A DNA stretch of 64,000 nucleotides from Synechococcus sp. (GTDB taxonomy: Bacteria; Cyanobacteriota; Cyanobacteriia; PCC-6307; Cyanobiaceae). The translations under genes were made by a program, and so were the position numbers. The notes below the pieces were generated by a model. It was not told the origin of the DNA. It saw only the letters and a program-made list of their open reading frames with translations, and did not search any database. The stretch spans positions 1,240,203 through 1,304,202 of the forward strand of contig JBJBEO010000001.1 in NCBI GenBank assembly GCA_047284725.1, read 5' to 3'. Shown piece by piece: positions 1-60,527 of this stretch (positions are counted from its first letter, which is position 1; each line of letters starts with the position of its first letter).

Positions 1-523
1 CGATCAACCCCTGCTTCAGAAAAGGGAGCAACGGCAGCAGACTTGTGGTGGGGAAGCAGCCAGGAGCAGCCACCAGCCGTGCCTGAGCAATGGCGGGGCC
101 TTCCCATTCCGGAAGGCCATAGACGGCTTCGTTGCACAGATCGGCATCATGACGTTGATGTTTCTGTGCTTCTTGCGCATACACCTGAGACCAGGTTTCC
201 AGGGAGCGATAGCGGTAATCGGCTGAAAGGTCGACGACTCGTACACCGCGCTCCATCAACGGTGGTACCAACTGGCTGGCCAAACCGTTGGGGAGGCTGA
301 GCACCGCGAAATCGGCCGCCTCCGCAATGGCCTCTGCTGATGGTGCTTCGACAAAAGGATCGTCGAGCAGGGGTAGAAACGGGCAGATCTCACTCCAGCG
401 CTTCCCTGCACTGCGTTCTCCGCCGAGAAACGTGACGGCAAAGTTGGGGTGTCGCTGCAGCAGACGCAGGGTCTGAAGTCCCCCGTATCCTGAGGCACCG
501 ATTACCGCAACGCGTCCAGCCAT
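1..523 (-). CDS. argC: N-acetyl-gamma-glutamyl-phosphate reductase (5' part; runs off window start)
   Basis: Manual translation from ATG at 523 (GGAGG upstream): MAGRVAVIGASGYGGLQTLRLLQRHPNF..., the ArgC Rossmann N-terminus. Absent from the ORF track because there is no stop in the window. Confidence 0.93.
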   Translation of the reverse strand, partial: MAGRVAVIGASGYGGLQTLRLLQRHPNFAVTFLGGERSAGKRWSEICPFLPLLDDPFVEAPSAEAIAEAADFAVLSLPNGLASQLVPPLMERGVRVVDLSADYRYRSLETWSQVYAQEAQKHQRHDADLCNEAVYGLPEWEGPAIAQARLVAAPGCFPTTSLLPLLPFLKQGLI

Positions 524-612
524 CCCTCCCGTGGCAATGGGTGTGGGAACTGTTGGGTTGGACTGCATGCGAGGAGATGGTGGTGGAGTGATCGTACCGA
601 TGTCGATAATGA

Positions 613-2343
613 ATGCAGACCGTTGGCCATCGCAGACCCCTGAGCACGCCCTACGCCGCTGACGCCACCCCAACCGTTCGCTTCGATTCCATTCCCGACG
701 CCCTGGCTGCCATTCGCAACGGCGAATGTGTCGTTGTTGTCGATGATGAGCGTCGTGAAAATGAAGGTGATCTGATCTGTGCTGCTCAGTACGCCACGCC
801 AGATCAGATCAATTTCATGGCCACCCATGCGCGTGGTTTGATCTGCCTCGCCATGGAGGGGCAGCAGCTTGATGCCCTTGATCTGCCACTGATGGTGGAT
901 CGCAACACCGACGCCAATCAGACAGCCTTCACGGTGAGCATTGATGCCGGTCCAGAGAATGGCGTCACCACGGGGATCTCCGCCGAAGACCGATCACGCA
1001 CCATCCAAGTGGCGTTAAGACCGAATGCCCGTCCCACTGACCTGCGTCGACCCGGTCACATCTTTCCACTGCGCGCCCGTCAAGGGGGTGTGCTCAAGCG
1101 CGCGGGACATACCGAAGCCGCCATTGACCTCTCAGCTCTTGCCGGACTGATGCCAGCCGGCGTGATCTGCGAAATCCAGAATGCCGACGGCTCCATGGCC
1201 CGGCTTGCTCAACTGCGGCAGTACGCGGATCAGTGGAAGCTGCGCCTGATCAGCATCGCTGATCTGATTCGTTACCGCCTCGAAAATGAGCGCTTTGTGG
1301 TGCGTCAGGCCCATGCAGCCCTGCCGAGCGCCTTCGGAGAATTCAAGGCGATTGGATACCGGAATGAGCTGGACGGCAGTGAACACATTGCCATCGTGAA
1401 AGGCAATCCGGAAGACCTGCGGGAGCCTGTGCTCGTGCGGATGCATTCGGAATGCCTGACCGGCGATGCATTCGGATCCCTTCGCTGTGATTGTCGTCCC
1501 CAATTGGAAGCAGCTCTTCGTCGGATTGAAGTCGAAGGCGAAGGGGTGGTGGTTTATCTGCGCCAGGAAGGCCGTGGAATCGGCCTCATCAACAAATTGA
1601 AGGCTTATAGCCTTCAGGATGGGGGACTTGACACCGTCGAGGCGAATGAAAAGCTCGGTTTCCCAGCGGATCTGCGTAATTACGGTGTTGGTGCACAGAT
1701 CCTGAGTGATCTCGGCATTCACCGGCTCCGGTTGCTGACCAACAATCCACGCAAGATTGCAGGTCTTGGGGGCTATGGCCTTGAAGTCGTTGATCGTGTT
1801 CCTCTGGTGATCGATCCAGGCGATCACAACGCCGACTACCTTGCTGCCAAACGCGACAAGCTCGGCCATCTCATTCAGCAGGGAGTGGCCATGCCCCTCA
1901 GCGCCACCTCAACGGAGACGCCCATCCAAACGCCCAGTCAAACAGTGATCAGCTGGGATGGAGACTGCAACATCGACCAGCTGCCCCTGATTCGCTCCCG
2001 TAGCGAATCCGCTGCCAGTTCTCTGCAAATCAGCCTGCGGGCGAGCTCTTCACCTCGGCTTCTTGCTTTATGGGAACGCCCCGCATTCGCATGGTCAATC
2101 GTGGATCAACCCACGGGTGCAGGGACTGCGTCCTACCTCACTCGTCTGCGGGCCCTGCTGGAAACGATGGCGTCCTGGCCAGAAACCCAACGAATCGGTC
2201 TCTACACAGCCGCCTCGATGGAACAGCTGAATCATCCACCCCAGACGGCAGAGCGAATCGAACGATCGCTCGAAACGCTCCGTAAGGGGGAAATGCAAGA
2301 ACAGAACCAGCTTGATCAGCCAGTCCTGTTGCAATGGAGCTGA
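613..2343 (+). CDS. ribBA: Bifunctional DHBP synthase / GTP cyclohydrolase II
   Basis: Motifs [28 protein letters not shown]...CDC and [10 protein letters not shown]. Start codon uncertain. Confidence 0.95.
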
Positions 2344-2349
2344 TCAGAA

Positions 2350-2790
2350 TCAGTCCTCAACCGTCACTTTGTTGATGCGTGAGCCATTGCTGAGCGCCAG
2401 GACCACATCCATGTCGCCGGTCTGACCGAACACGGTATGCACTCCATCGAGGTGGGGCTGGGCTTCGTGAACGATGAAGAACTGACTGCCACCGGTGTTC
2501 TTGCCGGCATGGGCCATCGACAAGGCACCAGGGCCATGTTTGCGACTGTTGATTTCGCAGTTGATGGTGTAGCCAGGGCCGCCTGTGCCGGCCATTCCAC
2601 GAGCACCCTCGCGGGAATTCGGACAGCCGCCTTGCGCCATAAACCCTGGGATCACGCGATGGAAGGCGAGTCCGTCATAGAAGCCCTCCTTCGCGAGCTT
2701 CACAAAGTTCGCCACTGTGTTGGGGGCGTCGTTGTCGAACATCTCCAGGCGGATCTTTCCTGCCTCGGTGTCCATCAGAACAGTGGTCAA
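2350..2790 (-). CDS. Cyclophilin-type peptidyl-prolyl cis-trans isomerase
   Basis: Cyclophilin motifs [19 protein letters not shown] and [10 protein letters not shown]. Confidence 0.93.
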
Positions 2791-2852
2791 AGTGCTGCCA
2801 CGAAACGATCATGCTAGGCCGATGCAGGATGGTGCGAACTCCACCTGACGCC

Positions 2853-3767
2853 ATGACCACTGCTGCCCTGAACGAGCGAATGCGACAGGCAAGGGTTGGG
2901 GTGATTGGGGGCAGTGGTCTCTATGCCATTGAAGGGCTCGAGGACATCTCAGAGGTGGTGTTGGAGACCCCCTATGGGCAGCCCTCCGATGCCTATCGAA
3001 CTGGACGTTTGCATGGTGTGGATGTGGTCTTTCTGGCCCGCCATGGACGCGGCCATCACCTCCTGCCAACGGAGGTTCCTTATCGAGCCAACATCTGGGG
3101 AATGCGTTCGTTACAGGTGGGATGGCTGATTTCCATCTCTGCTGTTGGTTCCCTGCAGGAGCAGCTCAAACCTCGTGACATGGTGGTGCCGAACCAATTC
3201 ATTGATCGCACGATGCAACGCCCGGCCAGCTTTTTTGGTCAGGGTTGCGTAGCCCATGTGAGCCTGGCGGAGCCTTTCTGTGCCGAGCTCAGCAACATGT
3301 TGGCCACTGCGGCTGAAGCCTCCATGCCAGTAGGACAGACCCTTCACCGGGGGGGGACGTACCTCTGCATGGAGGGCCCCGCCTTTTCCACCAAAGCAGA
3401 GAGTGAGCTCTATCGCAGTTGGGGCTGTGATGTCATTGGTATGACGAATCACACGGAAGCTCGTTTGGCCCGTGAGGCTGAAATCGCCTACGCCTCCCTG
3501 AGCATGGTCACCGACTACGACTGCTGGCATACCGATCACGATGCTGTCAGCGTCGACATGGTGATTGCCAATCTGCAGGCCAACGCAGCAGCCACCGGTC
3601 CGATACTTCAAGGCTTGATGGAGGGCCTCAGAGCCAACAGGCCCCAGTCCGCTGCCCACACCGCCTTGGCGGATGCCCTGATGACACGCCCGGAGACCGT
3701 GCCGGATTCAACACGAGAGGCGCTTGATCTCTTCACCAGCCCCTATTGGGGAGCCTTCAGGGCGTGA
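2853..3767 (+). CDS. mtnP: S-methyl-5'-thioadenosine phosphorylase
   Basis: Motifs GVIGGSG, LARHG, EGPAFST, GMT..TEA.LARE and VTDYDCW. Start placed at ATG 2853. Confidence 0.92.
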   Translation: MTTAALNERMRQARVGVIGGSGLYAIEGLEDISEVVLETPYGQPSDAYRTGRLHGVDVVFLARHGRGHHLLPTEVPYRANIWGMRSLQVGWLISISAVGSLQEQLKPRDMVVPNQFIDRTMQRPASFFGQGCVAHVSLAEPFCAELSNMLATAAEASMPVGQTLHRGGTYLCMEGPAFSTKAESELYRSWGCDVIGMTNHTEARLAREAEIAYASLSMVTDYDCWHTDHDAVSVDMVIANLQANAAATGPILQGLMEGLRANRPQSAAHTALADALMTRPETVPDSTREALDLFTSPYWGAFRA

Positions 3768-3842
3768 TGTCCTCAACATGCAAAGTCAGACAGGTGTGGA
3801 TCCTGGGTGCGATCTCTGTCGCCGGTGAGAGTGAAGCGTCCG

Positions 3843-4802
3843 TCAGGCGGACTTCAGGGAGACACCGCAACTCTTCAAGGCATCTCTGAGCTGATTGTGA
3901 TGGTCCTGAAGGACCTTGATCGAATCGGAAGCTGACAAGCCACTGGCTGCCATCAGCAGTGCAACCTTCACCGATCCATCAGCCTCCTTCAGCAACACCA
4001 TGGCCTCGTCCCTGGGGACACCAGCCAGGTCGCGCAGAATGCGCAGAGAGCGATCCACCAGCTTGCTGTTGGTGGCAGCGACATCCACCATCCGGTTCCC
4101 GTAGACCTTGCCCAGGCGCACCATCACGGCGGTGGAGATCACATTCAGAGCCATCTTCGTGGCGGTTCCCGCCTTCAGTCGTGTGGAACCGGTAAGCAGT
4201 TCAGGTCCGGTGAGCAGACGAATGTCGATGGTGCAGGGCATGGGCGCCTGATCTGCCGGGACACAAGCCATGGCGATCGCGAGTGCTCCCACGTTCATGG
4301 CATGGTCAAGGGCTCCATGCACATAGGGCGTTGTCCCCCCAGCGGCGATGCCGATGAGACAGTCACCGGGACCGAAGTGTCTTGCATTCAGATCCTCTAC
4401 TCCACCTGCCCGGAGATCCTCCAGACCTTCAGAGCTCTTCAGAAGGGCGGCAGCACCTCCGGCCAGGATTCCCTGAACGAGTTCTGGTGGACTGCAGAAC
4501 GTTGGAGGGCATTCAGCAGCATCCAGGACCCCGAGCCTGCCGGAGGTCCCAGCTCCCACGTAGAACAACCGACCACCCCTGGCAAGGCGTTGCGAAATCT
4601 GCTCCACAGCATCAGTAATCGCGGCTGACGCCGCCGCAACCGCCTGCTGAGGTTTCAGGTCTTCACTGATGAACAGATTCACCAGATCGGAACAAGACAG
4701 TGTGTCGAGTTCACTGCTGCGGGGATTGGCCTGTTCCGTCAGCAGATGCCCCCTGTCTTCAGAAGCGTGCATAGCGTGAACGCCTTGTGGGCTTGATGTC
4801 AT
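3843..4802 (-). CDS. murQ: N-acetylmuramic acid 6-phosphate etherase
   Basis: Motifs GAGTSGRLGVLDAAECPPTF and GPE.LTGSTRLKAGTATK. Confidence 0.95.
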   Translation of the reverse strand: MTSSPQGVHAMHASEDRGHLLTEQANPRSSELDTLSCSDLVNLFISEDLKPQQAVAAASAAITDAVEQISQRLARGGRLFYVGAGTSGRLGVLDAAECPPTFCSPPELVQGILAGGAAALLKSSEGLEDLRAGGVEDLNARHFGPGDCLIGIAAGGTTPYVHGALDHAMNVGALAIAMACVPADQAPMPCTIDIRLLTGPELLTGSTRLKAGTATKMALNVISTAVMVRLGKVYGNRMVDVAATNSKLVDRSLRILRDLAGVPRDEAMVLLKEADGSVKVALLMAASGLSASDSIKVLQDHHNQLRDALKSCGVSLKSA

Positions 4803-4808
4803 GGTTGT

Positions 4809-5225
4809 TCAGAGCAGCCCTTCAAGCCTGCGCCTGATGGCATCGAGGTCATTGTTGGATGATGTTTCTGGGGGAGCTGTGGCTTGGCTCTCGTCCATGT
4901 CAGCGTCCTGCCAACCGCTGACATCCCGGTTTGATGAGGGCGGGGCCAGCAACAGTCGCTCTTCATCGGTCTTTGGGACAAAACCCGATTCGACAAAACG
5001 TGCCTGATAGCCGGCCTTCAAGCAGAAAATTTCGATTTCCTCCCGGTCGAGGGCTTCAATCGAAGGCACAGGGAAGTCTTGGGCCTCGAGCAATCCTGCA
5101 TAACGCTCGGCGTCGTCTCCGTTCTCGAACATCAGCACCACCGTGTTGCCGGAAAGTTCGAGGGAGTGAATGCCTTCGCTGTCCTGCCCGGCGTCGTAAA
5201 GGAGAACGTGAACCAGCATTCGCAT
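4809..5225 (-). CDS. DUF3110 family protein
   Basis: EGIHSL...VLMFE..DDAERYAGLLEAQDFP and C-terminal IRRRLEGLL; lies downstream of dnaK-dnaJ as in other cyanobacteria. Confidence 0.8.
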   Translation of the reverse strand: MRMLVHVLLYDAGQDSEGIHSLELSGNTVVLMFENGDDAERYAGLLEAQDFPVPSIEALDREEIEIFCLKAGYQARFVESGFVPKTDEERLLLAPPSSNRDVSGWQDADMDESQATAPPETSSNNDLDAIRRRLEGLL

Positions 5226-5263
5226 TACAGAAGCGACCTCAGTTTGTCATCGAAGCTTCTCGC

Positions 5264-6199
5264 TCACGACTCCTCGGCCTCGAGAGCAAGCTCCTGCAAA
5301 CGTCGGTAGAGAGCCCGTTCCGCATCACTGAGCTGAGCTGGAATTACAACCACCACCTCAACGAGTTGGTCTCCACGCTGCTCATCAAGCTCCAGGCCTC
5401 GGCCGCGCAAGCGCAGCAGCCTTCCACTTGACGATCCAGGAGGCACCTGCAGCATCACTGGACCCGAAAGGGTGGGTACTTCGACGGCGCAGCCGAGGGC
5501 TGCATCAGCCGGCAGCAGCTCCAGTCGGTAGTGAACCCTCAATCCATCAATGCGAAGCCCGTCTTCGGTCTGCACACGCAACTGGAGAAAATGATCCCCA
5601 CCGCCAACGGTGACCCCTGTCAGACGCAGCCTCCAGCCATCTCCTGCCAAGGGAGGCGTCTGCACCTCAACCACGGTTCCATCAGGCAGTTGCAATTCAA
5701 CGGCTGTTCCCAGCAACGCCTGATCTGCTGTCAACAGAACGTCGGTTTCAAGCTGATCGGCGGCTCGAACCGGAGGTGGCGGCGGCGGTGGTGTGGTGGT
5801 GGGCCAGTCAGTTGAGGCGGCACGGGCACGATCATCGTGCTCTTGCCTCCCATGGAGATCGTCCTCTGAGGATTCCCTGGCAGGTCGCCATTGCGGTGCA
5901 TCCCCCAGCACCACGGCCAGGTAGTCCTCAAACTCTGGGAACCCCGAAGCAAACGGGTCATCACTGATGCTGGTGTCCCGTCCGCCTCCTTCCCAGGCTC
6001 GACGCCTTTTGGGGTCACTGAGAACGGCATAGGCCTCGTTCACCAGCTTGAAACGTTCTTCAGCCTCTTGATCATTGGCATTGAGGTCGGGATGCCAACG
6101 TCGTGCCTCGCGCCGAAAAGCGCGTTTCAGTGCATCCGCGTCACTATCGGGTTCAAGGCCGAGGAGAGACCAGTAGTTGGGCTCAGCGGTAGAAGTCAT
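5264..6199 (-). CDS. dnaJ: DnaJ-family co-chaperone (J domain plus C-terminal domain, no zinc finger)
   Basis: J domain with HPD (ARRWHPDLN) and C-terminal LRLRGRG...GDQLV. ATG at 6199 overlaps the dnaK end by 17 nt. Confidence 0.88.
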   Translation of the reverse strand: MTSTAEPNYWSLLGLEPDSDADALKRAFRREARRWHPDLNANDQEAEERFKLVNEAYAVLSDPKRRRAWEGGGRDTSISDDPFASGFPEFEDYLAVVLGDAPQWRPARESSEDDLHGRQEHDDRARAASTDWPTTTPPPPPPPVRAADQLETDVLLTADQALLGTAVELQLPDGTVVEVQTPPLAGDGWRLRLTGVTVGGGDHFLQLRVQTEDGLRIDGLRVHYRLELLPADAALGCAVEVPTLSGPVMLQVPPGSSSGRLLRLRGRGLELDEQRGDQLVEVVVVIPAQLSDAERALYRRLQELALEAEES

Positions 6200-8180
6200 C
6201 GTCCCAGGGATCCATCCCTTGTCGTGAACTGCCGTAGCGCTCAGGGGCAGAACGTCCGCCGGAGGTCGCCCAGGGATCGTCGTCCCAGTCGTCATCAGCG
6301 AACAGTTCGTCTTTCAGGGAACCCAGGGTGTTCCGAATGCCCTGGAGTGGGCTCGATTCCGACCGTCGTTCCGCAGAAAGGCGTCGATTCAAGCCAAACA
6401 TCGCTTCTTGCAGCGCACTGACGCTGAGTTCGAGTTCCTGAAGATCGTTCTGCTCGAGACGATCTTGAAGATCACGCATCGCCATCTCCACGGCTCTTTG
6501 CTGCCTTTCCGCCCCGTAGGGACCCAGTTCCAATGCAGCATCACGCAACCGACGTTCTGCCTGGGACACGAGGGTGAGTGCTCTGTTGCGGCGTTCGATG
6601 GCTGCTCGAGTGCGGCGGTCTTCATCCGCGCTCGCCTCGGCTTCAGCCAGCAGAGCCTGCAACTCATCCTCATTCAGATTGGATCCACCTTGGATCGTCA
6701 CCGACTGCTTTCTGCCGGTGGTGCGATCCGTGGCACTGACCTGAAGAATGCCGTTGGCATCGATATCAAAGGCCACCTGAATTTGAGGCACGCCTCGAGG
6801 TGCAGGGGGAATGCCTGACAAACGGAATCGTCCCAGGGACTTGTTATCAGAGGCCATCTGGCGCTCCCCCTGCCAGATATGGATTTCAACGGAGGATTGA
6901 TTCGATTCCGACGTGCTGAACACATCGGATTGCCGCACAGGGATCGGAGTGTTGCGGGGGATGAGCACCTTCATCAACCCGCCCACAGTCTCCAGGCCAA
7001 GGGAAAGGGGGGTCACGTCATTGAGCATGAGGTCCCTCAGCTCACCGGTGAGAATGCCTGCTTGGACGGCAGCACCCACCGCCACCACTTCATCTGGATT
7101 GACTGACTGGCAGGGATCGTGAGGAATCAGCGTGCGCACCAGCTGTTGAACCATCGGCATGCGCGTGCTGCCTCCTACAAGAACCACATCATCGATGTCT
7201 TCGGCAGCCCAGCCGGAGTCGCGCATCGCTGACTGCACGGGTACAAGCAGACGGTCGAGAAGATCGGGACACAGGCTCTCAAACGTGCTCCGTTCAAGAC
7301 TGGACTCAATATGCAGTGGACCATCGTCACCCGTGGCGATGAAGGGTAGGGAAATCGGAGTGCTGGTCACACCGGACAACTCCTGCTTGGCCTTCTCTGC
7401 GGCCTCCGTGAGGCGTTGAAGGGCCTGCCTGTCTCGCCGTAAATCAAGACCGTAAGCCTTGAGAAAGTCTTCAGCGAGCCAATCAACGATGCGTTGATCG
7501 AAGTCATTGCCTCCGAGCTGTGTATCACCGTTCGTGCTTTTCACATCGAAGACACCATTCGCAACACGCAGCAATGACACGTCAAAGGTGCCTCCGCCCA
7601 GATCGAAGACCAGTACGCGTTTCACGGCACTGCGATCAAAGCCGTAGGCCAGCGCTGCAGCCGTTGGTTCGTTGAGGATTCGCTCCACCTCCAGACCAGC
7701 CAATCGTCCGGCATCTCGGGTGGCCTGACGTTGGGCGTCGTTGAAATAGGCAGGAACGGTGATCACTGCAGCCTCGACTGTTTCTCCCAGGTATGTGGAG
7801 GCGTCGTCAACAAGCTTGCGCAGGATGCTGGCAACAAGCTCCTCTGGGGCGTATTCCCGTTCGGTGATCGGGCATGCCACACGCACGTTGTTCTGAGCAT
7901 TCGCCCGCACCGTGTACGGCACCGTGAGGCTGCTGTCGTCGAGCTCATCCCAGGTCCGACCGACAAACCGCTTGAGATTCGAAAAGGTATTGCGCGGGCT
8001 CAAGACCAGCTGACGCCGAGCGGCCTGCCCGACCAGCAGCTCAGCATCCTTGGTGTAACCAACGACCGATGGGGTCGTTCGTGTTCCCTCGGCATTGGCA
8101 ATCACCTGTGGCCGACCTGCTTCGAGGACAGCCACCACGGAGTTGGTCGTTCCAAGGTCGATTCCGACGATCCGCCCCAT
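6183..8180 (-). CDS. dnaK: Hsp70 chaperone DnaK (DnaK3-like paralog with acidic/Trp-rich tail)
   Basis: Motifs GIDLGTTNS, TVPAYFND and DLGGGTFDVS; tail DDDWDDDPW...DPWDDD. Confidence 0.96.
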   Translation of the reverse strand: MGRIVGIDLGTTNSVVAVLEAGRPQVIANAEGTRTTPSVVGYTKDAELLVGQAARRQLVLSPRNTFSNLKRFVGRTWDELDDSSLTVPYTVRANAQNNVRVACPITEREYAPEELVASILRKLVDDASTYLGETVEAAVITVPAYFNDAQRQATRDAGRLAGLEVERILNEPTAAALAYGFDRSAVKRVLVFDLGGGTFDVSLLRVANGVFDVKSTNGDTQLGGNDFDQRIVDWLAEDFLKAYGLDLRRDRQALQRLTEAAEKAKQELSGVTSTPISLPFIATGDDGPLHIESSLERSTFESLCPDLLDRLLVPVQSAMRDSGWAAEDIDDVVLVGGSTRMPMVQQLVRTLIPHDPCQSVNPDEVVAVGAAVQAGILTGELRDLMLNDVTPLSLGLETVGGLMKVLIPRNTPIPVRQSDVFSTSESNQSSVEIHIWQGERQMASDNKSLGRFRLSGIPPAPRGVPQIQVAFDIDANGILQVSATDRTTGRKQSVTIQGGSNLNEDELQALLAEAEASADEDRRTRAAIERRNRALTLVSQAERRLRDAALELGPYGAERQQRAVEMAMRDLQDRLEQNDLQELELSVSALQEAMFGLNRRLSAERRSESSPLQGIRNTLGSLKDELFADDDWDDDPWATSGGRSAPERYGSSRQGMDPWDDDFYR

Positions 8181-8258
8181 ATCCGTGCGTTGCGTGGTCC
8201 CAAGTTACCGGTCCCGACCCATCAGCCCAAAGTCTGTGACGTGGCCGACTCACCTTTG

Positions 8259-8289
8259 AATAACCACGCCTTAATGATGGGGCTAACCC
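8259..8289 (+). promoter_or_regulatory. Possible degenerate Pho box upstream of pstC
   Basis: AATAACCA, CTTAATGA and GCTAACCC at 11-12 nt spacing resemble the cyanobacterial PyTTAAPyPy(T/A) repeats; match is imperfect. Confidence 0.3.
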
Positions 8290-8325
8290 TCTGCACGTAG
8301 CTTTAAGAGTGAGAGCACCTGAGGT

Positions 8326-9276
8326 ATGGCCATCGACCCCAAGGGGACGTATCAGTTAAGACACCGCCCTGCCTCTGAAAAGCTTGTGGACACAGGCTTC
8401 AATGTCGGCACTGTGTTGATGGCATCCATGGTCGCCGTGGTCTTGTTTGCCATCCTGATGATCGTGTTCTTCGGCTCTCTCGAGTCGATTCAGCGCTATG
8501 GGTGGCGTTTTCTCGTCACCTCTGCCTGGAATCCTGTTGAAGACGAATACGGTGCACTCACAGCGATCTATGGAACGCTGGTCACATCGCTTGTGTCGCT
8601 CCTTATCGCTGTTCCTCTAGGCGTTGGTACAGCCATTTTCATCACCGAAAGCTTTATTCCCAAGCCAGTCCGTGCCGTGATCGGATTGATGGTGGAACTG
8701 TTGGCAGCCATTCCTTCCGTCGTTCTTGGCCTGTGGGCCATTTTTGTTCTGGAACCCGCCATACGACCCGGTCTGAATTGGCTCTATGAGAACTTCCAGG
8801 AGATCCCACTGTTCAGCACAAAACCCCTGGGGCCCGGCACTGCACCTGCAATTCTTGTGCTGGTGGTGATGATTCTTCCCATCATTACGGCCATCTCCAG
8901 AGATTCTCTGAATCAAGTTCCCAACAGGCTGAGACAGGCGGCCTATGGAGTTGGCAGTACTCGATGGACTGCCATCCTGCATGTGATTCTGCCTGCTTCC
9001 ATCTCAGGAATTGTTGGCGGTGTCATGTTGGCCCTGGGTCGTGCCATGGGAGAGACCATGGCCGTCACGATGATCATTGGCAATTCCAATAATTTCAGCT
9101 GGTCTTTGCTGGCTCCAGGTAATACGATTGCAGCCATGTTGGCCAATCAGTTTGGTGAAGCCGATGGCAGCCAGGTGTCATCCTTGATGTATGCGGCATT
9201 GGTGCTGATTATTCTGACGCTTTTTGTGAATATTCTCGCTCAATTGGTAGTCAAGCGTCTAAGTCTGAAGTACTGA
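8326..9276 (+). CDS. pstC: Phosphate ABC transporter permease PstC
   Basis: ELLAAIPSVV.GLW and LGRAMGETMAV; multiple TM helices. Confidence 0.95.
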   Translation: MAIDPKGTYQLRHRPASEKLVDTGFNVGTVLMASMVAVVLFAILMIVFFGSLESIQRYGWRFLVTSAWNPVEDEYGALTAIYGTLVTSLVSLLIAVPLGVGTAIFITESFIPKPVRAVIGLMVELLAAIPSVVLGLWAIFVLEPAIRPGLNWLYENFQEIPLFSTKPLGPGTAPAILVLVVMILPIITAISRDSLNQVPNRLRQAAYGVGSTRWTAILHVILPASISGIVGGVMLALGRAMGETMAVTMIIGNSNNFSWSLLAPGNTIAAMLANQFGEADGSQVSSLMYAALVLIILTLFVNILAQLVVKRLSLKY

Positions 9277-10175
9277 TGTCAACAACATCTCAATCTCAGT
9301 CAAGATCCATACCTGATCTCAGGTTTAAACCACTGCGGCGTCGCAATGTCTTAGAGGCATTGCTCACGACAGTGGCATCTCTATTCTCCTTGATTGCTGT
9401 CTTACCCCTACTGTTTGTACTGGGCTATGTGTTGATCGAGGGATCCAGCAAGTTAAGCCTCGATTTGTTTTTATTGGAGCAACCTGCTCCCGGACTGGAT
9501 GGAGGGGGCATTGGCAATGCCATCCAGGGATCATTCATGGTCACGTCCATCGCCAGTGCAATTGCCATACCCATCGGGATTGGAGGCGGCATTTTTCTAT
9601 CTGAGTATTCAAAATCCGGGTGGTTTTCTCAGTTCATCCGATTTGGAACCAACGTTTTGTCCGGTGTTCCTTCAATTATTGCTGGCATTTTCGTCTACAG
9701 CTCCATTGTTTCCACCCGTCTTCTCTTCGGCCACTCCTACAGCGCGATTGCAGGTGGAATTGCACTATCGGTTCTGATGTTGCCAACGGTCATCAAGACC
9801 ACCGATGAAGGACTCAAACTGGTTCCTGATGATCTTCGCCGCGCAGCACTGGGCGTTGGTTCCTCCAGGTTTGTGACCATCATTCGAATCACTCTTCCCT
9901 GCGCTTCGACCTCGATCGCCACGGGAATCGTGCTCTCGATTGCCCGTGCTGCGGGAGAGACGGCACCTCTCATCTTCACAGCCCTTTACTCACCTTGGTG
10001 GGCAGACGGTGCGTTCAATCCGGTCGGCACCCTGTCAGTTTTGATCTTCAAGTTCGCCAACATGCCTTATGAGGTCCAGAAGCAACTCGCCTGGGCAGCC
10101 TCATTTGTGCTCGTGATGTTCATTCTTCTTCTCAATCTCCTGGCACGATGGATTAACAGGCTCACGTCGAAGTAA
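9276..10175 (+). CDS. pstA: Phosphate ABC transporter permease PstA
   Basis: LSGVPSII.G and [16 protein letters not shown] overlap with pstC. Confidence 0.95.
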
Positions 10176-10240
10176 ATCGCTTCCCCCGTGTCTTTTGCAC
10201 AGCAATCCCTCTCATCGTTCTCAGTTCTCACCCTGATCCC

Positions 10241-11059
10241 ATGACCGGTTCTGTCCAGGCCACCCTCTCTACTATTGCTTCAGACATCTGCTTGTCTCTG
10301 GACAACGTCTCGATCAGCTATGGCGGGTCAGTCGCAGTACGCAATGTTTTCTGCAACATTCCTCGTGGCAAGGTGACTGCCTTTATCGGACCTTCGGGCT
10401 GCGGCAAATCCACTGTCTTGCGATCACTCAATCGCATGAATGATCTGATTGATGGATGCAGCCTCACTGGAAGAGTGCTGTTTGATGGAGCCGACCTTTA
10501 TCATCCACGGATCGATCCGGTGGAAGTGAGGCGTCGTATCGGCATGGTATTTCAACAACCCAACCCCTTCCCAAAGAGTATCTATGAGAACATCGCTTTC
10601 GGAGCCAGGATCAATGGCTTCAGTGGCGATATGGATGAATTGGTTGAACGTTCTCTACGACAAGCTGCTGTTTGGGATGAATGCAAAGACAAGCTGAATG
10701 AAAGCGGTTGTTCCCTCTCAGGTGGACAGCAACAGCGTCTTTGCATTGCGAGGACCATTGCCATCCAACCTGAAGTGATCCTGATGGATGAACCATGCTC
10801 AGCGCTTGACCCTATCTCCACTCTTAAAATCGAAGAGACAATGCATGAGCTCAAGAAGACGTTCACCATTGTGATCGTGACCCACAACATGCAGCAGGCT
10901 GTGCGCGTGAGTGACATGACAGCCTTCTTCAATGCTGAGGCTCAGGATGGAGGGTCGGGAAAGGTGGGTTATCTGGTGGAATTCAATCAAACCGATCAGA
11001 TTTTCAATGCCCCTTCACAACAAGCGACTCAGGACTACGTCTCGGGGCGGTTTGGGTGA
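10241..11059 (+). CDS. pstB: Phosphate ABC transporter ATPase PstB
   Basis: [45 protein letters not shown] and C-terminal YVSGRFG. Confidence 0.96.
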
Positions 11060-55975: not shown

Positions 55976-56178
55976 CGAATTTGCCTTCCCATCAAACAGC
56001 AAACTAATCGCTAACTATCTTCGAATCAACGCAAACATGGCACCCCTAAACCCGAACATGTATCATTAATTGACAATAGATTTTCGCAGATTTGCTAACC
56101 TTTTGTGGATAAACTAATCAAGCATTAGGCCGCAAATTACAACAATAAAAGCACGGCTTCGACGACAGAGCCAATCGA

Positions 56179-56511
56179 TCAATTTGTATAAATTGAAAAG
56201 ATCGCTCGACCGTAGCGATCATCTGTCAAACTGTAAACATCTTCTCCTCCCTCTTGCTTCATGTCATAGGTCTTACCTTGATCGCTGCTTAGAAACTTAA
56301 ACATCCACTCATTGCTCATAAAAATAACCTTATTGCCAGTGTCGACGCCCAATGTGTAGGTATCACAAAGTCCTTCTTGGTCAGGCTTATCACTTTCCCA
56401 TGTAATTCGACATGGAGTGCCAACCTCTGGTTCGGCATGAACTCGCTGATGGTCGGCGAGAAGGCCGAAGGAGAGTCCAAGCAAGGAAGCGATGGCGAAG
56501 GCTTGTTTCAT
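56179..56511 (-). CDS. Hypothetical secreted protein
   Basis: MKQAFAIASLLGLSFGLLA...VHA signal peptide, two Cys residues, AT-richer codons. Confidence 0.62.
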   Translation of the reverse strand: MKQAFAIASLLGLSFGLLADHQRVHAEPEVGTPCRITWESDKPDQEGLCDTYTLGVDTGNKVIFMSNEWMFKFLSSDQGKTYDMKQEGGEDVYSLTDDRYGRAIFSIYTN

Positions 56512-56781
56512 GGGATCTGACCCTTTCCTCTGCAATCGTATTCATTCCTGACCCATCTGTCAGAGGGATAAGTCGTTTCATCAGTCCTCAGATTCCTCCC
56601 GCAGAAGACACGTGCATCGACACCCAATCCTCCGAACACCCTCAGCCATGACTGCAGCCATGGCTCCCAGCGCGAATGCCATGAACCGCCAAGGTATTGC
56701 CAGGCTGGTGCTGACGGACTGACCGGCATGCAAGGCAGACCAGTGGCCACGATCGGCGACCCAGCTCCCTTCTCACCAACC

Positions 56782-57345: not shown

Positions 57346-58031
57346 TCGGTCCATAGACCTAAACGATCCTCAGAGCCATACCAACTGCGGCCAAACAATC
57401 CACCATGGGCGGTGTCAGGCAGGATCAGATGTCGGGCATTGGCCAACAAGGCAGAGCTCACCGGCACCAACCCATCCCCTTCCACGCCATCGGTACCGGC
57501 AATGCTTCGGTAACTGCCGGCGGCACTGCGTTTGCTGAAGACGCTGGCGTTGGCGGAGCCCAGGTCAAGGGTGCCTGCAATCGAGAGGTAATCGACGTCA
57601 GAACACGGTGTGCCTGGGAACTTCCTGTCCACCATCAGGCGCAGTGGCGTGCCACGTTGAGCCTGATGGGGGCTGCCCAGTGTGATCAGCTGATTGCAAT
57701 GGCTGGCTCCGCCATAGGTACGGCCTGAAAACGGCTCATCGCTGAGGTAAAGCCGAAGCATCACTCCGCCTGAGCTGTGGCCGATCAGGGTCACCTGTCC
57801 TGTCGGCGACTGACGGGCCAAGGTACCGACATGGTGGTGGACCCGATCGAGCAAACGCCTCCAGCCGATGGCCCAGCTCGTGAGCATCCAATCAAAACGG
57901 CTGGCAGGAACAACCCGAACTTCGGCGCCAAGACGTGATTCAATCCAAGAGGCCATTGGCGCATAGGCCTCGTCTGTGATCAGAAAGCCACCAAGAATCA
58001 CCACAGGTTGAGCGGCTGCCGCCATCGCCAT
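57282..58031 (-). CDS. Alpha/beta-hydrolase (esterase/lipase family)
   Basis: GHSSGG nucleophile elbow, LITLGSPH and DGLVP..SA...H. Confidence 0.85.
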   Translation of the reverse strand: MAMAAAAQPVVILGGFLITDEAYAPMASWIESRLGAEVRVVPASRFDWMLTSWAIGWRRLLDRVHHHVGTLARQSPTGQVTLIGHSSGGVMLRLYLSDEPFSGRTYGGASHCNQLITLGSPHQAQRGTPLRLMVDRKFPGTPCSDVDYLSIAGTLDLGSANASVFSKRSAAGSYRSIAGTDGVEGDGLVPVSSALLANARHLILPDTAHGGLFGRSWYGSEDRLGLWTDQIGRYPTQSGMNVQEGTSGS

Positions 58032-58079
58032 CACAAGACCATCAATCCAGCCATCATCGGAGCCCGTAGCGACCTCTCG

Positions 58080-58559
58080 ATGACACCGGAACGTGTTTGT
58101 GACTACCCACGTCCCCCCCTCGTGGAGCAGCGCCATGGACCGGTGCTGGTGACGCTCGGTGGTGACCTGATTGCCCAAAGCGACACCTACGTTCGGGTGT
58201 GTGAGACGTACCACCCTCCAACGATCTACATTCCGATTGAGGCCTTTCAATCGGGGACTCTCCACCCGACCACCGGACGCCCCAGTTTTTGTGAATGGAA
58301 AGGGATCGCCCGATACTGGAATCTTTCCAATCGCGATGGGGAGCACCGCCAGGAACGTGCAGCCTGGAGCTATCCCACACCCACGGATCGCTTCAAGCTG
58401 CTGGCGGGATGGATCAGCCTCTACCCCGGACTGATGCAGTCCTGCCATTTAGAGGGTGAATTGGTCAGCCCCCAGCCGGGCCGTTTCTACGGTGGATGGA
58501 TCACCTCGGCGGTGATTGGGCCGTTCAAGGGGGATCCCCTTCACCCCGAATTGATCTGA
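58080..58559 (+). CDS. DUF427 family protein
   Basis: DYPRPP, ETYHPPT.YIP, SFCEWKG.A.Y, AAWSYP.P and QPG.FYGGWIT. Confidence 0.88.
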   Translation: MTPERVCDYPRPPLVEQRHGPVLVTLGGDLIAQSDTYVRVCETYHPPTIYIPIEAFQSGTLHPTTGRPSFCEWKGIARYWNLSNRDGEHRQERAAWSYPTPTDRFKLLAGWISLYPGLMQSCHLEGELVSPQPGRFYGGWITSAVIGPFKGDPLHPELI

Positions 58560-58593
58560 GACCAGAACCAACGACAGGTTGGTCCAATCAGGA

Positions 58594-58623
58594 AGGCCGC
58601 CTTCCCGGGTGGGAAGACGGCCT
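58594..58623 (-). terminator. 13 bp GC-rich terminal hairpin
   Basis: Minus strand AGGCCGUCUUCCC-ACCC-GGGAAGGCGGCCU; the single plus-strand C/A mismatch is a U.G pair on minus. Confidence 0.6.
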
Positions 58624-59020
58624 AGCTCGCTCGTTCGCGCATGGTTCAACCCCGTCACGTCTTGGGAAAGAAGGAAAGGGGCGAAGCGTTCTGGCGTTGG
58701 CAACCCTGGGGCCATGACGTCCAGGTGTAGTGCTGATGAAGCTCCGGGGCACCTTGTCTGCATGAGCAGCGTTGGGCGGTGCAGTGGAGTGTCGATTCGC
58801 GTGGCGCACCGGATCAGTGCCTGCGAAAGGACCAGCTCTACGGATGAGTGGAAACTGTTGGAGCAGGGGCCAGAAGTCAGTCTGCTTCTTAGGTTTGCTC
58901 AGGTGGAGTGTCGGCTGTCATCAGCGCCTCCGATCTCGATGCACCTACTTTGCGCTGGCTGGGCGGGGTTGCCTATCCGTGTAAAGGCGCATTGCCTTTG
59001 GGTGTCGGCCATCAGATAGT
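58594..59020 (-). ncRNA. Candidate large structured RNA or dual-function element
   Basis: About 470 nt gap in a compact genome, with multiple hairpins, a repeated CGACAC(U)CC motif and a strand-specific terminal stem (see findings). Confidence 0.45.
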
Positions 59021-59033
59021 GAAAACTTGTGCA

Positions 59034-59477
59034 ATGCCAACTGTGCAACCTGGCACTGAAGTCGCCGTTGCCATGCTTCACCGCGACAACCTCTGGCTTC
59101 TTCAACTTCGCGACGATGTCGAGGGGATCATCGCGCCAGGGTGCTGGGGACTGTTCGGAGGCCATCTCGAAGCTCACGAAACACCGGAACAAGGACTGCG
59201 GCGTGAACTGAGGGAAGAGATCACGCTTGAAGCAGCAGACCTGAAGCCACTATTGACGTGGCGCCATGACCATCGGCTGCTCCACGTGTTCATCGGACCT
59301 TTGTCGGTCCCCATCGAGCACCTTCAACTACGGGAAGGTCAAGACCTCACGCTTGCGGGGCTTGAACAGATCCGGCAAGGGGTCGTGAAGAGCCAACGTC
59401 TGCAACAGGTCAGACCACTGGCGGGATGCCTACAGCACGTCGTTGAGCAGTGGCAGAGCGGTGCAATCACCCTCTGA
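59034..59477 (+). CDS. NUDIX hydrolase
   Basis: LQLRDD...PGCWGLFGGHLE..ETPEQGLRRELREE (Nudix box). Confidence 0.9.
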   Translation: MPTVQPGTEVAVAMLHRDNLWLLQLRDDVEGIIAPGCWGLFGGHLEAHETPEQGLRRELREEITLEAADLKPLLTWRHDHRLLHVFIGPLSVPIEHLQLREGQDLTLAGLEQIRQGVVKSQRLQQVRPLAGCLQHVVEQWQSGAITL

Positions 59478-59506
59478 AAAGCGACGTCATGCGCTCTGTG
59501 ACCAGA

Positions 59507-59716
59507 TCAGAGCAACGGCAACAGGATCACGACAAGCATCGCCACCAACAGCCAGACCCACCAAGGAACAATGAAACGTCCCTGACGCTTCACCGCAGGG
59601 TTCCGCTGGGGGGGAGCCCCCTGAGGTGCACCACAACGGGTGCAAAACAGTCGCCCTGCCAATGAACGATCAGCCCGCCAAGATCGTGATCCACACTGGC
59701 GACAGACCGATGACAT
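59507..59716 (-). CDS. Small zinc-ribbon protein with C-terminal TM helix
   Basis: MSSVCRQCG...RADRSLAGRLFCTRCG...WWVWLLVAMLVVILLPLL. Confidence 0.72.
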   Translation of the reverse strand: MSSVCRQCGSRSWRADRSLAGRLFCTRCGAPQGAPPQRNPAVKRQGRFIVPWWVWLLVAMLVVILLPLL

Positions 59717-59729
59717 CAAGGCAAGTTCA

Positions 59730-60527
59730 GTGAGCGAACGTTCTGCATCTTGGCTTGACCTCAAGGCCGTTGAAGCCTGGATCAGCTCCAAGTGCATCTT
59801 CCACGATCTCACCCTACGGTTGAACAAGGGTCAGCACACCGCCGTCCTTGGCCCCAACGGCTCCGGTAAGAGCACCTTGGTGCGGCTGATCGATCGCAGT
59901 CTTCACCCGGTGGTGAAACAGGGGTCGTCCCTTCACCTCTTCGGCAGCGAGAGACCACGCCAGTGGGAGCTGCGAAGAAAGATCGGACTGGTTTCAGCAG
60001 AGCTTGAACAGAGAGTTCCTCGTCAGATCTGCTGCAGAGACCTTGTGCTCTCAGCGTTTTTCGGATCCATTGGTCTGCGCGTCGATCAGATTCCAACCAA
60101 GCGGCAATCCGCCAGGGTCGATTATCTGCTTCCAGAACTGGAGCTCAACACCCTTGCCCATGAGCCGTTCGGTCACCTCTCTGATGGCCAGAAACGTCGG
60201 GTGCTGATTGCACGGGCATTGGCTCATCAACCGGACGTGCTGGTGCTCGACGAACCGACCAATGCCCTTGATCTCAAGGCCAAGCACGACCTGCTCAGGG
60301 TGCTTCGTCGACTCTGCTGCAGCGGGACAACCTTGGTGATGATCACGCATCAGGTGGAAACACTGATCCCTGAGATCGAACGAGTGATCTGCCTGAAGCA
60401 GGGAAGCGTCATCGCCGATGGGGATCGGAATTCCATCCTCAGCGGGCCCCAACTCTCCGCCCTGTTTGATACCCCACTGCAGGTGATCGAGTCAGCCGGC
60501 TATCGCCAGGTGATGCCCCTGTCATAA
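59730..60527 (+). CDS. ABC ATP-binding protein (ModF-like)
   Basis: GPNGSGKS, LSDGQ, LDEP and ITH; GTG start inferred. Confidence 0.85.
   Translation: MSERSASWLDLKAVEAWISSKCIFHDLTLRLNKGQHTAVLGPNGSGKSTLVRLIDRSLHPVVKQGSSLHLFGSERPRQWELRRKIGLVSAELEQRVPRQICCRDLVLSAFFGSIGLRVDQIPTKRQSARVDYLLPELELNTLAHEPFGHLSDGQKRRVLIARALAHQPDVLVLDEPTNALDLKAKHDLLRVLRRLCCSGTTLVMITHQVETLIPEIERVICLKQGSVIADGDRNSILSGPQLSALFDTPLQVIESAGYRQVMPLS

Follow-up and report, generated by a model that had tools for sequence, protein, structure and literature searches.

The gap between the DUF427 and NUDIX genes

The DNA analysed here (the window) is a stretch of 64,000 nucleotides (nt) from Synechococcus sp. (GenBank assembly GCA_047284725.1, contig JBJBEO010000001.1, positions 1,240,203 to 1,304,202 of the forward strand), and the subject is the gap at window positions 58594-59020, which is bounded by a DUF427 gene (stop codon at 58557-58559) and a NUDIX gene (ATG at 59034). 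The G+C (guanine plus cytosine) content of the gap equals that of the neighbouring genes. Comparison with related sequences supports the view that the gap holds a complete minus-strand RNA gene, with a promoter, a ~353-nt RNA and a terminator hairpin. The segment 58586-59000 of the minus strand is very probably a complete and independently transcribed copy of yfr103, whose multicopy and very highly expressed structured RNA is known from marine Synechococcus, Cyanobium and low-light Prochlorococcus. The RNA in the gap thus belongs to a family that has already been described, and the observation is real but not new. Both RNA ends were placed by inference, the 5′ end at A58940 and the 3′ end a few bases past the terminator stem. 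The original prediction, which considered the letters of the window alone, was right in calling a non-coding RNA (ncRNA) here, but it overlooked the multicopy nature of the element and its identity as Yfr103.

Conserved fold and strand of the RNA

In total, 64 full-length copies of the element were gathered from 24 genomes and aligned with MAFFT. A consensus structure was computed by RNAalifold from 24 representatives of the 29 clusters formed at <88% identity; five clusters were left out, three because of large internal deletions and two for want of a coordinate mapping. The consensus has 56 pairs in 12 helices. Of the alignment cells at these positions 96.6% are paired, a share that drops to 35-51% on shifting the partners by 1-3 columns, and compensatory changes are seen in 13 of the 56 pairs, against 6.8 ± 1.4 in shuffled alignments (0 of 500 shuffles as high). 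The paired cells comprise 1158 Watson-Crick pairs and 140 G:U pairs but only 13 A:C combinations, and therefore the fold exists on the minus strand of the window. Covariation and nucleotide conservation in relatives were both looked for and both found, and together with the G:U bias they bear out the large structured minus-strand RNA, ending at the hairpin 58594-58623, that the original prediction had proposed.

Several helices stand out in the consensus. In the 5′ hairpin, GGAG of a conserved GGAGG sequence pairs with CUCC of the first of two copies of an 11-mer motif (Table 1), and the inner stem reads GCU/AGC in 12 sequences and GCC/GGC in 12. The long central hairpin contains four covarying pairs, and a GCACC/GGUGC hairpin forms a further helix. 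The central domain is closed by a long-range helix. In nine distant copies inspected (freshwater and other), this helix is GGAGU:GCUCC in five and GAAGC:GCUUC in four, the latter form being kept in RCC307 and Prochlorococcus MIT 0707 among others. The long-range helix covaries in this way between marine and freshwater lineages.

The hairpin arms named in the original prediction are all present: AAAGGC/GCCTTT at 58983-58999, CAGCGC/GCGCTG at 58922-58957, GAGCA/TGCTC around AGAAG/CTTCT at 58861-58900, and CCTGG/CCAGG at 58705-58725. Two of them do not belong to the RNA fold, however. The palindrome at 58983-58999 lies in the promoter, outside the RNA, and the pairing at 58922-58957 reaches across the inferred start and is not conserved among the other copies. 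The significance of the fold comes from the comparison across copies, and much of what a single sequence offers is at chance level; the 11-mer motif, for example, is expected 1.72 times in the window at ≤1 mismatch. It does occur exactly twice in the element, at 58784-58794 and 58903-58913, as had been stated, and both copies as well as the terminal stem are conserved across the family.

One open reading frame (ORF) of the plus strand, with 146 amino acids (aa) at 58579-59019, spans the whole element, and it could be taken for an ordinary protein-coding gene. The variation among copies speaks strongly against this. When the 64 copies are compared with this one, substitutions are spread evenly over the three phases (593/599/617, p 0.77), most pairwise indels (173 of 203) have lengths not divisible by 3, and the longest open stretch varies from 45 to 118 aa among the 24 representatives. 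In a Pfam scan of five local ORFs none reached the curated cut-off. An ordinary protein gene can therefore practically be dismissed, as the original prediction had also judged, while its suggestion that part of the frame is linked to 'RNA recognition motif' proteins found no counterpart in the Pfam result.

The family has no counterpart in Rfam either. With Rfam 15, cmscan of 57500-60500 at E up to 10 returned best values of E 6-10 to unrelated eukaryotic or Xanthomonas families, so that the Yfr and Cyano families suggested earlier as a place to look gave no match. Homologous copies in the loci of 11 relatives had no match at gathering score, the only hits being two tRNAs in one relative (L083). 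A hammerhead ribozyme, prompted by the sequence CUGAUGA, was set aside, since a GAAA core in register is missing and Rfam gave no match.

Promoter and terminator

Upstream of the RNA, the alignment contains a -10-like hexamer whose three defining columns are A in 63, A in 62 and T in 63 of the 64 copies. Seven nt downstream of the hexamer is a conserved A (62/64), which corresponds to A58940 in this copy. Further upstream is a box with the core GCAATGCGC, kept in 52-64 of the 64 copies, together with C.GAT, kept in 53-64. The box is likely to be a transcription-factor site of operator-like character. Because the palindrome AAAGGC/GCCTTT lies within this conserved box, it is most likely a protein-binding DNA site and not an RNA hairpin.

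At the other end, two positions of the terminator stem are G:U pairs in 20-21 of the 24 copies, and clear U runs follow the homologous hairpin on the same strand in relatives, including distant (freshwater) ones. The 13-bp stem is fully paired only on the minus strand, as originally noted, since the C/A mismatch of the plus strand is a G:U pair on the minus strand. The plus-strand form of the hairpin also lacks a U run. The hairpin lies 35 nt past the stop codon of the convergent DUF427 gene and could also end the DUF427 transcript.

Identity as Yfr103

According to the section on Yfr103 in Hou et al. (2016, Sci Rep 6:35470, PMC5069720), Yfr103 of Synechococcus CC9605 comprises seven paralogous ncRNAs of 290-328 nt, which are the most highly accumulating transcripts of this strain and account for 55.2% of the mdRNA-Seq reads. 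In the same section the secondary structure is described as strongly conserved, an imperfect palindrome is placed at -29 to -58 relative to the mapped start, homologs are given for low-light Prochlorococcus and for further marine Synechococcus including WH7803 and RCC307, and the function is called enigmatic (PMC5069720).

The element in the window agrees with this account in copy number, promoter palindrome, secondary structure and lineages. There are several paralogs per genome, with 11 matches at nine loci in the own genome; the promoter box is at -29 to -59 from the inferred start; and the secondary structure is likewise conserved (56 pairs, 13 of them compensatory). The same named strains and lineages are involved, since the family profile matches the records of WH7803 (L096, 229 bits), RCC307 (L161, 159 bits) and Prochlorococcus MIT 0707 (L145 and L146, 122-123 bits). 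No difference in kind from Yfr103 was seen. Yfr103 of marine Synechococcus and low-light Prochlorococcus is also said to have been treated by Voigt and colleagues in ISME J in 2014.

Some points weigh against this identification or limit it. The RNA, at an inferred 353 nt or so, is longer than the 290-328 nt given in the Yfr103 section of PMC5069720. Of 24 aligned members of the family, 17 measure 326-337 nt between the inferred start and the tail. The assignment was made by the published description of the CC9605 loci Yfr103a-g (NC_007516.1), whose transcription starts are listed at 520624-, 523498-, 745088+, 946997+, 1038850+, 1437033+ and 2396316- (PMC5069720). In this strain, the start, end and strand of the transcript are inferred; a consensus scan for promoters and terminators called neither here, and the tail of this copy is U-poor. 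The folding energy of the single sequence is unremarkable (z = -1.22 for the minus and -0.68 for the plus strand). The binding partner and action of the RNA, discussed below, are put forward as a proposal only. Finally, four RNA-labelled runs, each from a different study, include contigs of the element, but such contigs show neither strand, nor ends, nor expression rank. In one of these runs (X1), which is flagged 'probably DNA', near-exact pieces of the element have a word depth of 244-9770, against 3.7-3.8 for two pieces of the NUDIX gene. Such a ratio would be hard to explain by copy number alone; it agrees with the literature and may be taken as a weak hint of high expression. The segment 58938-59019 has no contig cover in any of the four runs, nor have the flanking genes in any run but X1, and this absence was not used as evidence.

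Table 1. Features of the yfr103 copy and its flanks, from upstream to downstream on the minus strand (window coordinates)
Feature	Position	Strand	Remarks
Promoter and upstream sequence	58941-59033	-	Outside the RNA
Flank private to this copy	59001..59033	-	Adjoins the NUDIX start codon at 59034
Promoter box with imperfect dyad symmetry	58969..58999	-	-29 to -59 from A58940
-10-like hexamer CAAAGT (family pattern nAnAnT)	58947..58952	-	Alignment columns 87, 89, 91
Yfr103-family RNA body, ~353 nt	58586..58940	-	Kept in 64 full-length copies; covarying consensus structure
Shine-Dalgarno-like GGAGG	58927..58931	-	+10 to +14 of the RNA; 64/64 copies
Mini-ORF MTADTPPEQT, 10 codons and stop	58889..58921	-	Predicted; GGAGG, 5 nt, then AUG
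Motif copy 1, CGACACTCCAC	58903..58913	-	Conserved in marine copies; within helix 1 and mini-ORF
Long-range helix, 5′ strand GAAGC	58884..58888	-	Pairs with 58683-58687; closes central domain
Most conserved block of the family, 18-mer GGCCCCTGCTCCAACAGT	58854..58871	-	Near-invariant in alignment
Motif copy 2, CGACACTCCAC	58784..58794	-	Conserved; partly in base of long hairpin (alignment columns 160-167)
Long-range helix, 3′ strand GCUUC	58683..58687	-	Pairs with 58884-58888
Terminator hairpin, 13-bp stem, then UUCCUGAUUGG	58594..58623	-	3/13 pairs with compensatory changes

Elsewhere in the window, the G+C content falls to 0.40-0.49 at 56000-56600, against about 0.59 around it.

Copies within and between genomes

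The search set consisted of the own genome and 40 others, 24 of the same genus and 16 of other families of the class. Among the nine loci of the own genome, a second locus matches 411 nt (58590-59000) at 100% identity and a third matches 417 nt at 99.3%, with a single difference among the three copies; copies or fragments with 71-80% identity are found at six more loci. Each of the nine loci has its own set of neighbouring genes. Matches were found in 23 of the 24 same-genus genomes, 2-11 in each, and in none of the 16 genomes from other families of the class. A family-wide search recovered the conserved core from 65 of the 121 genomes and 38 of the 64 genera, frequently as 1-2 copies in genomes of 1.1-1.9 Mb.

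The 18-mer of the most conserved block is found without mismatch in at least 121 stretches of public genomes. Of 80 such stretches retrieved, 74 also match the family profile, and the other six lie in non-cyanobacterial genomes. Nine contigs of metagenome bins with good Yfr103 matches (L094, L106, L137, L141, L151, L154, L162, L163 and L166) bear the labels Klebsiella, Salipiger, Planktophila, Tabrizicola, Bordetella, Rhizobium or Asaia, and they are probably misbinned picocyanobacterial contigs. A shorter (~250 nt) and weak relative of the family, at 15.5-22.7 bits, occurs in five genomes (L075:3020-3283, likewise L076-L079) about 1.1-1.3 kb from a NUDIX gene; it is devoid of the central domain and has no Rfam match. 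In the own genome, a partial copy (L021:9518-9707) lies 88 nt upstream of an orange-carotenoid-protein gene (9795-10802) on the same strand, and a full copy (L021:4052-4479) is found about 5 kb before that gene.

The copy in the window is an insertion. DUF427 adjoins NUDIX in five of 13 NUDIX loci of relatives, and the distance from the last aligned DUF427 codon to the first aligned NUDIX codon is 14, 14, 36, 71 and 74 nt in these five, compared with 477 nt here. None of the five has a Yfr103 element between the two genes, and therefore this copy arrived by insertion or duplication. Its identity to the two near-identical copies ends at 59000, with only loose similarity beyond, while those two copies have 447 nt in common and reach 32-36 nt further on the right side of the window. 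A body identical to that of another copy, preceded by 35 nt of diverged upstream sequence, suggests gene conversion between paralogs and not a fresh transposition. Paralogs of the family thus appear to be homogenised by gene conversion.

The private flank of this copy matches the upstream block of the Yfr103 family weakly. Within it, window positions 59002-59014 repeat, over 13 nt and at 85%, the 5′ part of the RNA at 58908-58920; this repeat may be a remnant of an older copy. It is the degenerate copy of the 11-mer that had been reported near 59000-59009, which is real but stands in sequence that only this copy has.

A second conserved block lies ~70-95 nt upstream of the start, at alignment columns 4-28 (window ~59009-59025), and reads GGCACGCC...CACT.TCGG. 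It resembles the 3′ half of the family terminator with its tail, and the 447-nt identity of the other two copies begins exactly at this block, which may mark the unit that is duplicated. In one same-genus relative (L056:1422-2760) three units follow each other head to tail with a period of 450 nt; the second and third have the terminator of the preceding unit in place of the upstream block.

These features could also be expected of a selfish mobile DNA element, for instance one resembling a miniature inverted-repeat transposable element, whose copies arise by transposition only and whose RNA has no function. The strain-specific insertion relative to five genomes, the 99-100% identical copies amid unrelated gene neighbourhoods and the tandem triple array in one relative would all suit it. 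However, no inverted repeat joins the ends of the element, and the flanks of the three near-identical copies share no duplication. A Pfam scan of the ORFs that surround five further copy regions in the own genome (82 of 84 candidates, two at locus edges being dropped) found no transposase, integrase or reverse transcriptase. Moreover, the compensatory changes and the G:U pairs specific to one strand show that the RNA fold is under selection, the promoter and terminator are conserved, and the core is present in 38 of 64 genera, often with 1-2 copies in small genomes. A purely selfish element is thus very improbable.

The 5′ end and its mini-ORF

The 5′ part of the RNA, in which the GGAGG resembles a Shine-Dalgarno (SD) sequence and is followed by a short ORF, deserves separate consideration. 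The comparison covered 116 distinct 5′ regions from marine Synechococcus, RCC307, freshwater Cyanobium and Prochlorococcus. GGAGG is present in 115 of them, and 114 have GGAGG, a spacer of 3-9 nt, a start codon (ATG 102, TTG 11, GTG 1) and an ORF encoding PP or GPT. On a tree built from 78 distinct copies, the changes counted by parsimony in codons 3-7 fall on the three codon positions as 10/20/38 (chi-square p 1.4e-4), and among 21 divergent 13-codon ORFs the entropy by codon position is 7.0/8.7/14.1. In this divergent set, the codons for D, T, P and P vary almost solely at the third base.

A possible explanation is that the 5′ end of Yfr103 is a translated mini-gene of 10-14 codons that read M(T)(A/D)DTPP..., in which either the peptide itself matters or ribosome loading or stalling at Pro-Pro is part of the mechanism of the RNA. 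Such a mini-gene would be compatible with the identification as Yfr103. On the other side, codons 8-14 show no coding signature (changes 52/67/43), and their changes follow the RNA helix, with GAA GCA turning into GGA GUG together with the distant pairing partner. The ORF is 13-14 codons long in 98 of the 5′ regions, but it is cut to 7-12 codons in 15 of the 116, this copy among them. The SD sequence is predicted to be paired, and Hou et al. treat the RNA as non-coding in their section on it (PMC5069720). The sequence encoding DTPP recurs as motif copy 2 outside any ORF, so that a constraint at the RNA level could explain it, and the counts of 5′ regions overstate their independence because the copies are related to each other. 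On balance, we regard the translated mini-gene as a tentative idea, with the odds against it.

Translation or ribosome docking at the 5′ end, taken as a broader statement, is likewise less probable than its absence. Most genes of these organisms reportedly have no obvious SD motif, and for this reason a perfect one on the most abundant transcript would be notable. If the idea is true, Yfr103 would be a dual-function or ribosome-engaging RNA with a peptide of 10-14 aa or a stalled ribosome, and not a classical small RNA (sRNA). Neither the literature searches nor the section on Yfr103 in PMC5069720 mention an SD sequence with a mini-ORF, and 'DTPP' is absent from its supplementary spreadsheet.

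The repeated 11-mer was the basis of another proposal, made in the original prediction, that the RNA is a sponge or scaffold: its repeats of a CACUCC (anti-SD-like) site, exposed in single-stranded form, would titrate a protein, an sRNA or mRNAs that contain an SD sequence. Indeed, there are two exact copies of CGACACUCCAC, both conserved in marine members of the family, and the abundance reported in the Yfr103 section of PMC5069720 would suit a titrating RNA. Only two of the four claimed periodic cores are conserved, however: the CACT cores at 58728 and 58846 vary between subfamilies, and therefore the 59-60 nt periodicity is not a feature of the family. The two conserved copies are at least partly inside predicted helices, copy 1 being paired with the 5′ GGAG, so that the picture of repeated single-stranded sites is not supported. 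Copy 1 also overlaps the conserved mini-ORF and varies at every third base in freshwater relatives, where the CUCC core is lost (ACG CCA, ACC CCG and others) with the rest of the RNA kept. No binding partner is known. A sponge or scaffold role is accordingly improbable, more so than a translated mini-gene.

Possible mode of action

Returning to the identification as Yfr103, the pieces above can be put together. Comparison supports that the conserved operator-like box and -10-like hexamer drive transcription from about A58940, that the resulting RNA of about 353 nt folds into several helices, among them the 5′ GGAG:CUCC hairpin, the long central hairpin and the long-range helix around the central domain, and that it ends at the G:U-containing terminator hairpin 58594-58623. 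As a proposal beyond this, the RNA would act in trans as a stable and abundant RNA that forms a ribonucleoprotein. Long invariant blocks in loops and junctions suggest a conserved macromolecular partner, and the invariant SD-like GGAGG, the start codon and the proline-proline mini-ORF would make the ribosome the leading candidate for it.

Yfr103 matters because of its reported standing as the most abundant transcript class of marine Synechococcus in situ, with more than half of the CC9605 reads in the account cited above (PMC5069720). Genome annotations leave its loci blank, because it has neither a known function nor an Rfam model. The present analysis gives the exact anatomy of one copy (operator box, -10, start, helices and terminator), a fold supported by covariation, and a view of copies being gained and homogenised within a genome, and the conserved SD sequence with its mini-ORF is one testable lead to the function. 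The insertion of this copy, its gene-conversion history and the conservation of the 5′ GGAGG and mini-ORF are not mentioned in the section on Yfr103 in PMC5069720.

Comparison with known RNAs

Among large RNAs of bacteria, HEARO, the omega-RNA of IscB (RF02033), is similarly structured and multicopy; it is tied to mobile elements, and many of its copies stand alone in intergenic DNA. The element described here differs from it in having no Rfam match at E up to 10 and no IscB, TnpB or HNH gene beside the copies examined, and in possessing its own promoter and ending in a terminator.

Closer in taxonomy are Yfr1 and Yfr2, which are about 60-100 nt long and are included in Rfam. They are families of cyanobacterial sRNAs with short conserved motifs rich in CUCC or GGAG, and Yfr2 is multicopy (PMC6778093). 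The present element shares with them the CUCC/GGAG motifs and, with Yfr2, the multicopy state; unlike them, it is far longer, and no Rfam match to them was found here.

A third comparison is with 6S RNA, RNase P RNA and tmRNA. The element differs from these RNAs in being multicopy, with a variable copy number, in its confinement to one cyanobacterial family and in having no Rfam match. What it has in common with them is that it would be an abundant, stable and structured RNA, and its long invariant blocks suggest that, like them, it works with a protein or ribosome partner.

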